Assembly: GCF_003790525.1 (NCBI RefSeq)
Contig: NZ_CP033634.1
DNA: 64,000 nucleotides
Strand: one strand, 5' to 3'
Source: Escherichia coli
GTDB lineage: Bacteria; Pseudomonadota; Gammaproteobacteria; Enterobacterales; Enterobacteriaceae
Part shown: positions 14,995 through 15,618 of the stretch, in pieces
Position numbering within the stretch: position 1 is the first letter of the stretch
Layout of the letters: every line of letters begins with the position of its first letter
Notes under the pieces: model-generated
The model's database searches: none
What the model was told of the DNA's origin: nothing
The model's input: the letters and a program-made list of their open reading frames with translations, nothing else
Translations under genes and position numbers: made by a program

Positions 14995-15618
14995 ATGGCC
15001 AGGAATCAGGAAAAGAAAACGCCCGTCATTGTGGTGAAAAAACGTCGCGTTATTTCACCTCCTGTCGTCGATAAAACAGAGACTGTCATTCCGCCTGTAC
15101 CGGAAGTGGCGGTACCACCGGCAGCTGCTGATGCGCAGCTGCCAGCCCCCATCCCGGATGCGTCTCCTGCGCCTGCTGCCGTCGGAAAGAAAAGGAAAGG
15201 AAGACCACCACGCAGGCCCCTCAGAGAGCACTGGACACGGGAGTTCACCGACCAGTGCATGGAAAAGGTCAAGGCAATTTTCCCGCATCTTCGCGCTGAA
15301 GGCGGCGGTTTTCTGCCTCTCAGGGTCGGTATCTCCCGCGATATTACTGCCTGGCTGGCTGAGCACCCTGAAGCCGGACTCACCCGGGATGAATGGGACT
15401 GTGCCGTATCCTGTATCACCTCCCGGCGTGTCTATCTGTTGCGTACCGCTGTCACCGGTGCCACCCGCTATGACCTCGATGGTAAGCCTGCCGGGCAGGT
15501 TTCTGAGGATGAGGCAAAAAATGCTCAGCGCTGGCTGGCCATCCGGGACCGCCGGTGGGAGAAAAAACAGGCCGCTCTGGCCGGGGCAACAGGCGGGGAG
15601 AATACGACCGCAAAATGA
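14995..15618 (+). CDS. FinO/ProQ-domain RNA-binding protein (second FinO-family gene in window)
   Basis: Central region LPLRVGISRDITAWLAEHPEAGLTRDEWDCAVSCITSRRVYLLRTAVTGATRYDLDGKPAGQVSEDEA aligns with the recalled ProQ N-terminal FinO-like domain; low-complexity Pro/Ala-rich N-terminus. Confidence 0.75.
   Translation: MARNQEKKTPVIVVKKRRVISPPVVDKTETVIPPVPEVAVPPAAADAQLPAPIPDASPAPAAVGKKRKGRPPRRPLREHWTREFTDQCMEKVKAIFPHLRAEGGGFLPLRVGISRDITAWLAEHPEAGLTRDEWDCAVSCITSRRVYLLRTAVTGATRYDLDGKPAGQVSEDEAKNAQRWLAIRDRRWEKKQAALAGATGGENTTAK

Follow-up and report, generated by a model that had tools for sequence, protein, structure and literature searches.

The window analyzed here, a 64,000-nt stretch of Escherichia coli DNA, carries an IncFII replicon and, about 2.36 kb downstream of the end of repA1, a gene for a 207-amino-acid (aa) FinO-domain protein, which we refer to as the fopA-like gene. 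The preliminary description of this DNA had placed a second FinO/ProQ-domain open reading frame (ORF) beside the RepFIIA replicon, in addition to canonical finO; both genes were confirmed at exactly the coordinates given there. The genes are ordered copB, CopA, tap (11707–11781), repA1 (ending at 12631), oriR, a RelE/ParE toxin gene, its antitoxin gene, a 718-bp spacer, the fopA-like gene, a convergent perC-family gene and TnAs1. Over positions 14500–16000 the window shares 100% identity with pESBL-blaCTXM-55 (NZ_OQ423473.1), an F-type, conjugative E. coli plasmid typed as IncFIA/IncFII/IncN/IncX1, and in that record the fopA-like gene is labeled 'ProQ/FINO family protein' (WP_021536204.1). 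A tblastn self-search revealed no third FinO-domain ORF within the window, the only matches lying at 7410 and 14995; the second homologue match that a PLSDB search reported in NZ_OQ423473.1 is not in the window.

The start codon of the fopA-like ORF agrees with the comparison of its homologues, which are conserved from the first residues onward (MARNQEKKTPVIVVKKRR). Pairwise ratios of non-synonymous to synonymous substitution rates (dN/dS) between the gene and its homologues ranged from 0.15 to 0.41, indicating that it is under purifying selection. A promoter consensus scan of the region 5′ of the gene yielded 4 sites where 1.6 were expected, and about 110 nt preceding the ATG are conserved in three of the loci compared with the window (L006, L007 and L008). 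Among all the loci used for comparison, L004 is the IncI1 plasmid pCol1B9, L013 is pPK8275-82kb, L018 is pKpQIL-6e6 (NZ_CP007730.1), and L006 and L009 are both taken from NZ_AP027219.1.

Domain architecture of the protein

Profile and structure searches all supported a FinO domain. Pfam ProQ/FINO (PF04352) matched the C-terminal part of the protein (E=1.4e-15, 57.6 bits, model positions 5–108 of 109), and phmmer against the PDB returned the N-terminal domain of ProQ (5nb9, 5e-8) and RocC (7rgu, 7rgs and 7rgt, ~6e-6). In an AlphaFold2 model built on a 26-sequence alignment, 10-residue blocks over aa 81–190 had an average predicted local distance difference test score (pLDDT) of 90–96, and aa 1–66 were disordered. 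When the PDB was searched with Foldseek, the top 26 matches were all FinO-domain structures (RocC, FinO, Lpp1663 and NMB1681) with a probability of 1.00, the next match having E=0.8; template modeling scores normalized to the target reached 0.83, and were about 0.8 for RocC. In this model, the protein has the FinO fold, and it ends about 14 residues past the domain.

The region that precedes the domain consists of two basic segments separated by a linker. In the first segment, I12 and V14-K15-K16-R17-R18 are invariant across the 26-homologue alignment, FopA and PcnR included. The Pro/Ala-rich N-terminus mentioned in the preliminary description is indeed present, Pro and Ala accounting for 51% of aa 21–63 compared to 23% of the whole protein. 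In the second basic segment K68 is invariant, and R73, P75, H79 and W80 are kept in at least 90% of the aligned sequences.

FinO domains recognize their ligands with little regard to sequence, holding a terminator hairpin at its base and its pyrimidine tail at the 3′-OH end, and in the RocC–RocR complex Tyr87, Arg97 and Gly52 of RocC form the 3′-nucleotide pocket, the glycine in a β-turn (PMC9674577). This pocket is present in the fopA-like protein, where Y147 corresponds to ProQ Y70 and RocC Y87, R158 to ProQ R80 and RocC R97, and G112 to RocC G52; of these, R158 and G112 show no variation among the 26 aligned sequences.

Table 1. Coordinates of the fopA-like gene, of the segments of its product and of other features in the window
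Feature	Position	Strand	Basis and remarks
fopA-like gene	14995–15618	+	ORF call; ATG start; 207-aa FinO-domain protein
N-terminal basic motif, aa 1–20	14995–15054	+	MARNQEKKTPVIVVKKRRVI, 7 Lys/Arg; alignment; predicted disordered (AlphaFold2)
Pro/Ala-rich variable linker, aa 21–62	15055–15180	+	Composition; indel-rich, little conservation in alignment; pLDDT <50
Second basic patch, aa 63–80	15181–15234	+	VGKKRKGRPPRRPLREHW, 8 Lys/Arg; composition, conservation
FinO/ProQ RNA-binding domain, aa 86–193	15250–15573	+	Pfam PF04352; AlphaFold2; Foldseek
Promoter-like elements CTGACA-18-AATAAT and TTGTGA-18-TATTAT, 5′ of the fopA-like gene	14916–14979	+	Consensus scan; prediction only
Canonical finO, encoding the plasmid's first FinO-domain protein	7410–7970	+	NCBIfam NF010317, 363 bits, positions 1–186 of 186
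CopA antisense RNA, candidate ligand	11598–11689	−	Rfam RF00042, 99.7 bits, full length
FinP	54997–55073	−	Rfam
sok-type RNAs	10632–10788; 50850–51026		Rfam
AS-pc02	8210–8393	−	Rfam, 202 bits; first described on IncFII pHK01
AS-traI	4168–4244	−	Rfam, 106 bits; first described on IncFII pHK01
AS-pc01	43474–43576	−	Rfam, 87 bits; first described on IncFII pHK01
2.5-kb cassette: RelE/ParE toxin, antitoxin, fopA-like gene, 5′-clipped perC	13394–15866		Windowed identity
RelE/ParE toxin	13594–13929		Annotation
Antitoxin	13926–14276		Annotation
perC-family remnant, convergent with the fopA-like gene	15673–15866	−	Homology end; first 10 nt replaced by the TnAs1 end
TnAs1 transposase	15900–18866	−	ORF, annotation

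Relationship to FopA and PcnR and association with CopA-type replicons

The protein aligned over its full length with FopA (YafB) of the IncI1 plasmid pCol1B9 from Salmonella SL1344 (Gerovac et al. 2020, PMC7491321), with 54% identity over 202 alignment columns (E=2e-71). Identity was 39% with PcnR of the IncI2 plasmid pHNSHP45 (Yang et al. 2021, PMC8053102) and 34% with a ProQ/FINO protein encoded next to the replicon of the IncFII(K) plasmid pKpQIL. An N-terminal motif, KKxPVIVVKKRR, is common to all four proteins. We consider it very likely that the ORF encodes a FopA/PcnR-type plasmid FinO-domain RNA-binding protein. It is thus a member of an already described group of copy-number regulators, of which putative homologues had been noted on IncI1 and IncB/O plasmids (PMC8053102), and the gene is already named in RefSeq.

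By the same comparisons, the protein is not an orthologue of FinO or ProQ. The FinO assignment was rejected because the protein scored 22.8 bits with NCBIfam NF010317, for which the cut-off is 136, and is 25% identical to the plasmid's own FinO (E=0.095). The ProQ equivalog model NF003434 gave 30.4 bits against a cut-off of 127 and matched the FinO-domain part only. The earlier label 'ProQ-like' does not hold in the sense of orthology, the protein belonging to the FopA/PcnR clade instead.

Like FopA, the protein carries its FinO domain behind a disordered N-terminus in which there are two basic patches, lacks both the FinO-type N-terminal and the ProQ C-terminal domains, keeps the Tyr and Arg of the pocket, and is encoded within a few kb of an antisense-controlled IncFII-family rep gene. 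It differs from FopA in 46% of its residues and in having a linker rich in Pro and Ala. Moreover, its gene adjoins a CopA/tap/CopB-type IncFII replicon, whereas that of FopA adjoins the Inc/pseudoknot repZ (PK-repZ) region, and the window plasmid also encodes canonical FinO, whereas Salmonella carries FinO and FopA on different plasmids. FopA has been characterized experimentally; the fopA-like protein is known here from its sequence and predicted structure. PcnR, which represses the copy number of a replicon that has both a leader peptide and an antisense RNA, shares with it the KKTPVIVVKKRR motif, the FinO domain and a replicon-proximal gene, but the fopA-like protein is nearer FopA than PcnR, and the target of PcnR is the repR leader stem-loop, not an antisense RNA.

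With FinO the protein has in common the Pfam domain, the fold and a basic N-terminus, and it may likewise be a plasmid-borne repressor acting through an antisense RNA, but its gene lies beside rep whereas finO lies at the end of the tra operon. We observed that the N-termini of FinO (7410–7470) and of the fopA-like protein (14995–15054, EKKTPVIVVKKRR) both fit a loose basic-x-P-V-hydrophobic(3)-K-basic motif, a match too short for statistics. ProQ and RocC share with the protein the FinO-domain fold and the 3′-end pocket residues. The fopA-like protein differs from ProQ in lacking the ProQ linker and the Tudor-like C-terminal domain, and from both ProQ and RocC in having Asp in place of the N-cap arginine, in being plasmid-borne and, probably, in having a narrow target range.

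To describe the distribution of the gene we used PLSDB plasmid records, to which all counts given here refer. A tblastn search detected homologues in 3221 records, 364 of them from Klebsiella; most were of the IncI1/K FopA type (~52–55% identity) or of the IncI2 PcnR type (~37%). The fopA-like allele itself was far rarer, with about 31 records at 99% identity or more and about 55 containing any homologue of at least 60% identity. The same synteny, in which repA and usually a toxin-antitoxin pair are followed a few kb downstream by the FinO-domain gene, was seen in the window, in pCol1B9 (IncI1), in pHNSHP45 (IncI2), in IncK2/Z-typed plasmids, in the F-type loci L008, L010 and L014, and in pKpQIL; L010 also encodes FinO. 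In the window plasmid, L008, L010, L014 and L018 the replicon contains CopA (RF00042) and not PK-repZ. These CopA-type replicons beside fopA-like genes contradict the strict co-distribution of FopA with the Inc/repZ-type control region that was previously reported (PMC7491321). We found no paper on a FopA/PcnR-type protein encoded next to an IncFII or IncFII(K) replicon with CopA, pKpQIL included, or on the same plasmid as FinO, although literature coverage was limited and absence is no proof; the CopA-type replicon context and the presence of FinO and a FopA-like protein on one plasmid can be regarded as mildly new.

The pKpQIL homologue was found on the KPC plasmid pKpQIL-6e6, where a 187-aa ProQ/FINO protein is encoded about 1.2 kb downstream of repA (L018 3270–3833). 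Its 34% identity spans nearly the full length and includes the EKKAPVIVVRKSR motif, and the CopA-type replicon beside it scored 81.8 bits with Rfam. Decayed alleles were also seen. P0018 diverges over part of the domain, with an apparent frameshift, and in P0019 and L011 (321–869) a deletion of about 30 aa has taken out the helix that bears Tyr147, indicating that the fopA-like gene is dispensable in some plasmids.

A recombinant cassette downstream of oriR

Windowed comparison with the IncK2/Z-typed plasmid pPK8275-82kb (L013), which has a type I mating-pair formation system (MPF_I), showed that identity jumps at about position 13394 and ends at 15866. Between these positions the two sequences are 99–100% identical, whereas leftward, in repA and oriR, identity is only ~85%. 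On the right, the cassette is bounded by the TnAs1 end, which begins at 15867 (GGGGAGCCCGCAGAATTCGG...). Judging from these identities, the fopA-like gene was brought in by a cassette, also present in IncK2/Z-typed I-complex plasmids, that includes the toxin-antitoxin pair. Every locus that we compared loses homology at 13479–13481, just past oriR; this site looks like a recombination hot spot at which F and I-complex plasmids swap such cassettes, and the present location of the fopA-like gene is, on this comparison, the result of an exchange there. Six carriers of the identical allele were checked for context: the window plasmid and pGZM7d, both F-type with a CopA replicon; three IncK2/Z-typed plasmids of the MPF_I class; and an IncHI2 plasmid in which IS26 adjoins the segment.

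Downstream of oriR, a stretch of some 380 bp (13102–13481) is 91–92% identical to pCol1B9 (L004 1953–2332) and to L003. In addition, in NZ_AP027219.1 (L009 2031–2181 together with L006 1–873) a PK-repZ/Inc control region directly precedes an IncFII-family RepA gene and origin, ~85% identical to repA1 of the window. By its sequence, the replicon of NZ_AP027219.1 is chimeric, which means that F and I-complex plasmids share homology for recombination. IncZ replicons are reportedly RNAI/IncFII-RepA chimeras, as Praszkier et al. are said to have described in 1991; a literature check gave nothing useful on this point.

The perC-family gene is intact, at 204 bp, in L013, L012, L015 and L016, which include IncK2/Z-typed relatives, and the 345-bp 'PerC' ORF annotated by RefSeq in the window (15673–16017, minus strand) is a fusion reading into the transposon end. 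We considered perC as a functional partner of the fopA-like gene and rejected it, since it is not in the L006, L007, L008, L010 and L018 contexts and is clipped at its 5′ end here.

The spacer between the antitoxin gene and the fopA-like gene contains a 36-bp perfect palindrome, GCTTAATGCTAATGTATGCGTACATTAGCATTAAGC, at 14407–14442, the 32-bp core of which also occurs in I-complex plasmids (L004 3902–3933 and 4458–4489; L003 7761–7792; L006 3295–3326). It also contains a block of about 150 nt (14600–14751) that is ~85% conserved 3′ of differing toxin-antitoxin modules, with two copies in L007 and others in L008 and L010. Within this block lies a strong terminator-like hairpin on the minus strand at 14625–14643, GCCTGCCCTCCGGGCAGGC followed by T7. 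A 44-aa ORF with a GGAGG Shine-Dalgarno (SD) sequence lies at 14644–14778, but its reading frame is lost in L010, L007 and L008, suggesting that the block is probably non-coding. A cognate small RNA or small gene just 5′ of the fopA-like gene was thus unsupported, neither the hairpin nor the 44-aa ORF having an evident tie to the protein.

Candidate role in copy-number control

The CopA–CopT system is usually treated as protein-independent. CopA of the window forms two stem-loops (I and II), and the tail GGGGUUUUCACUUUU comes after them. Stem-loop II and the tail are 57–58% identical to Inc of pCol1B9 and to the I-complex region of L009, compared to 37–41% for the flanking sequence, and all three have a CCCC/GGGG stem base, a CGCCAA loop and a UUUUC-rich tail. 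The tail of Inc reads GGGGGUUUUCCUUUU, so that the pattern common to CopA and Inc is GGGGUUUUC(A/C)CUUUU. Such a shared 3′ element would explain why near-identical proteins are found beside both CopA-type and Inc-type replicons.

RNA immunoprecipitation and sequencing with FopA was dominated by Inc, the other top ligands named being chromosomal RNAs; at ~1 μM, FopA binds not only Inc but also the repZ leader, with similar affinity, and the complex of the two; it protects Inc and makes Inc–repZ pairing ~7-fold faster (PMC7491321). Deletion of pcnR raises IncI2 copy number ~10-fold, and PcnR exerts its repression of repA without the antisense RNA, through the first stem-loop in the repR leader, to which it binds (PMC8053102). 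Those members of the clade that have been characterized act on RNAs that control replication in IncFII-family replicons (PMC7491321, PMC8053102), which suggests CopA or the tap-repA leader as the target of the fopA-like protein. We tentatively favor CopA, while leaning slightly to the side of doubt about the mechanism in its specifics: the protein would bind the terminator hairpin and U-rich 3′ tail of CopA, as FopA does with Inc; binding would protect CopA and speed its pairing with CopT; and, as translation of tap and RepA1 fell, plasmid copy number and fitness cost would stay low. Some role in the control circuits of the window plasmid itself is plausible, though far from certain.

Alternatively, the protein could act in the manner of PcnR, binding a stem-loop at the start of tap in the repA mRNA rather than CopA and blocking translation of tap and of the coupled RepA1, which would lower copy number likewise. 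PcnR has the same architecture and an antisense-independent mode of leader binding, the IncFII replicon has the same leader-peptide coupling, through tap, and FopA binds the repZ leader fragment about as well as Inc. Folding of the CopT/tap leader also indicated a high degree of structure (z=−3.5), including a small hairpin that covers the SD and AUG of tap. However, the hairpin predicted there is a short one of low stability, unlike the terminator-type ligands of FinO domains, and the protein is far nearer to FopA than to PcnR in identity. We consider this mode of action quite improbable.

The preliminary description had suggested that the protein could serve several antisense RNAs of the plasmid. 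CopA, FinP and sok-type RNAs were indeed found with Rfam, and the matches to AS-pc02, AS-traI and AS-pc01 indicate that the antisense RNAs with terminator-type ends exceed the four named there. Terminator-type 3′ ends being the generic ligand of FinO domains, the protein might also serve FinP/traJ, Sok/hok or a srnB-type system, overlapping with FinO or backing it up, and the ~8-fold increase in IncI2 transfer caused by pcnR deletion could be read in this way. By contrast, FinP already has an intact FinO, FinO is unable to complement a pcnR deletion, the top ligands named for FopA include neither FinP nor Sok and are dominated by Inc, and the conserved position of the gene is beside rep, not tra or hok. 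We found no support for finP, sok or srnC as targets of the fopA-like protein, and such a general chaperone function appears very improbable.

Several observations weigh against CopA as the ligand. PcnR, from the same clade, failed to bind its own antisense RNA in an electrophoretic mobility shift assay (PMC8053102). L009, from an IncK2/Z-typed plasmid that encodes a 94%-identical protein, has a PK-repZ/Inc-type control region and not CopA; this, together with the identity of the cassette, ~100% to IncK2/Z-typed plasmids where repA and oriR reach only ~85%, indicates that the antisense RNA with which the protein co-evolved was probably another one. The IncFII CopA-repA1 region is matched by at least 5000 PLSDB records, compared to the ~55 that contain a homologue of at least 60% identity, and pbAPEC5202, whose IncFII replicon is 99.7% identical and has an identical CopA score, carries a toxin-antitoxin pair different from that of the window and no fopA-like gene within 5 kb. 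That a near-identical replicon occurs without the gene shows the latter to be an accessory and not a core part of IncFII control. Furthermore, the N-cap arginine (RocC R75, ProQ R58), conserved in ~80% of FinO domains (PMC9674577), is replaced by Asp135 in the fopA-like protein (nt 15397–15399). FopA has Leu and PcnR has Asn at this site, and loss of the arginine from the RNA-binding face is shared throughout the clade; since FopA binds RNA with Leu at this position, Asp135 is compatible with RNA binding, and the substitution may relate to target choice. Finally, the promoter of the gene is a predicted one, a consensus match only, and expression of the protein, its binding to CopA and its effect on copy number are steps that we infer.

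These considerations bear on a further possibility, namely that recombination at the hot spot near oriR brought the gene in along with the toxin-antitoxin cassette, and that it serves no function for the IncFII replicon; if active at all, its product would then target Inc-type RNAs of co-resident I-complex plasmids or host RNAs. This would account for the sharp difference in identity between cassette and replicon, the loss of homology at 13479–13481 in every comparison, the share of F-type plasmids with a CopA replicon among the identical-allele carriers checked (2/6), the IncFII replicon that works without the gene and the decayed alleles elsewhere, and chromosomal RNAs are also bound by FopA. 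By contrast, about 31 plasmids share the identical, intact ORF, diverged alleles (72–90% identity) adjoin native CopA-type replicons in the F plasmids L008 and L010, and the 34% homologue adjoins the CopA-type replicon of pKpQIL, with matches to the protein search in the 364 Klebsiella records. The diverged F-plasmid alleles and the pKpQIL homologue indicate that the tie to CopA-type replicons is recurrent and not a one-off. The resemblance of the CopA 3′ element to that of Inc also argues against a mere passenger, an explanation that we regard as unlikely, and, if it held, the finding would be an ordinary one, a known and annotated gene family in a recombinant cassette.

The assistance of CopA–CopT by a FopA-type chaperone, our preferred reading, can be extended to a broader scheme, in which replicon-adjacent FinO-domain genes form a general, exchangeable third layer of copy control across the IncFII family of replicons as a whole (IncI1, IncI2, B/O/K/Z, FII and FII(K)), acting in trans between co-resident F and I-complex plasmids. 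Action in trans would be possible because only the shared hairpin base and U-tail are read. It could explain the report that a co-resident IncI1 plasmid lowered IncFII rep expression and reduced the copy number from 1.77 to 0.47 per cell, an effect that the authors of that study explained by ATP levels (PMC11237657); the fit with trans action of FopA is circumstantial, and the broader scheme as a whole is speculative and, in our view, doubtful.

If the fopA-like protein does act on CopA, a single F-type multidrug-resistance plasmid, a carrier of blaCTX-M-55, would hold two FinO-domain chaperones with separate jobs, FinO and FinP restraining transfer and the FopA-like protein and CopA restraining copy number. 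Both would lower the cost of carriage and so help resistance plasmids to persist. The principle established with FopA and PcnR would then extend to IncFII and IncFII(K) replicons, including that of pKpQIL, which are dominant in the spread of extended-spectrum β-lactamases (ESBL) and Klebsiella pneumoniae carbapenemases (KPC), and it would suggest copy-number cross-talk between co-resident F and I-complex plasmids.

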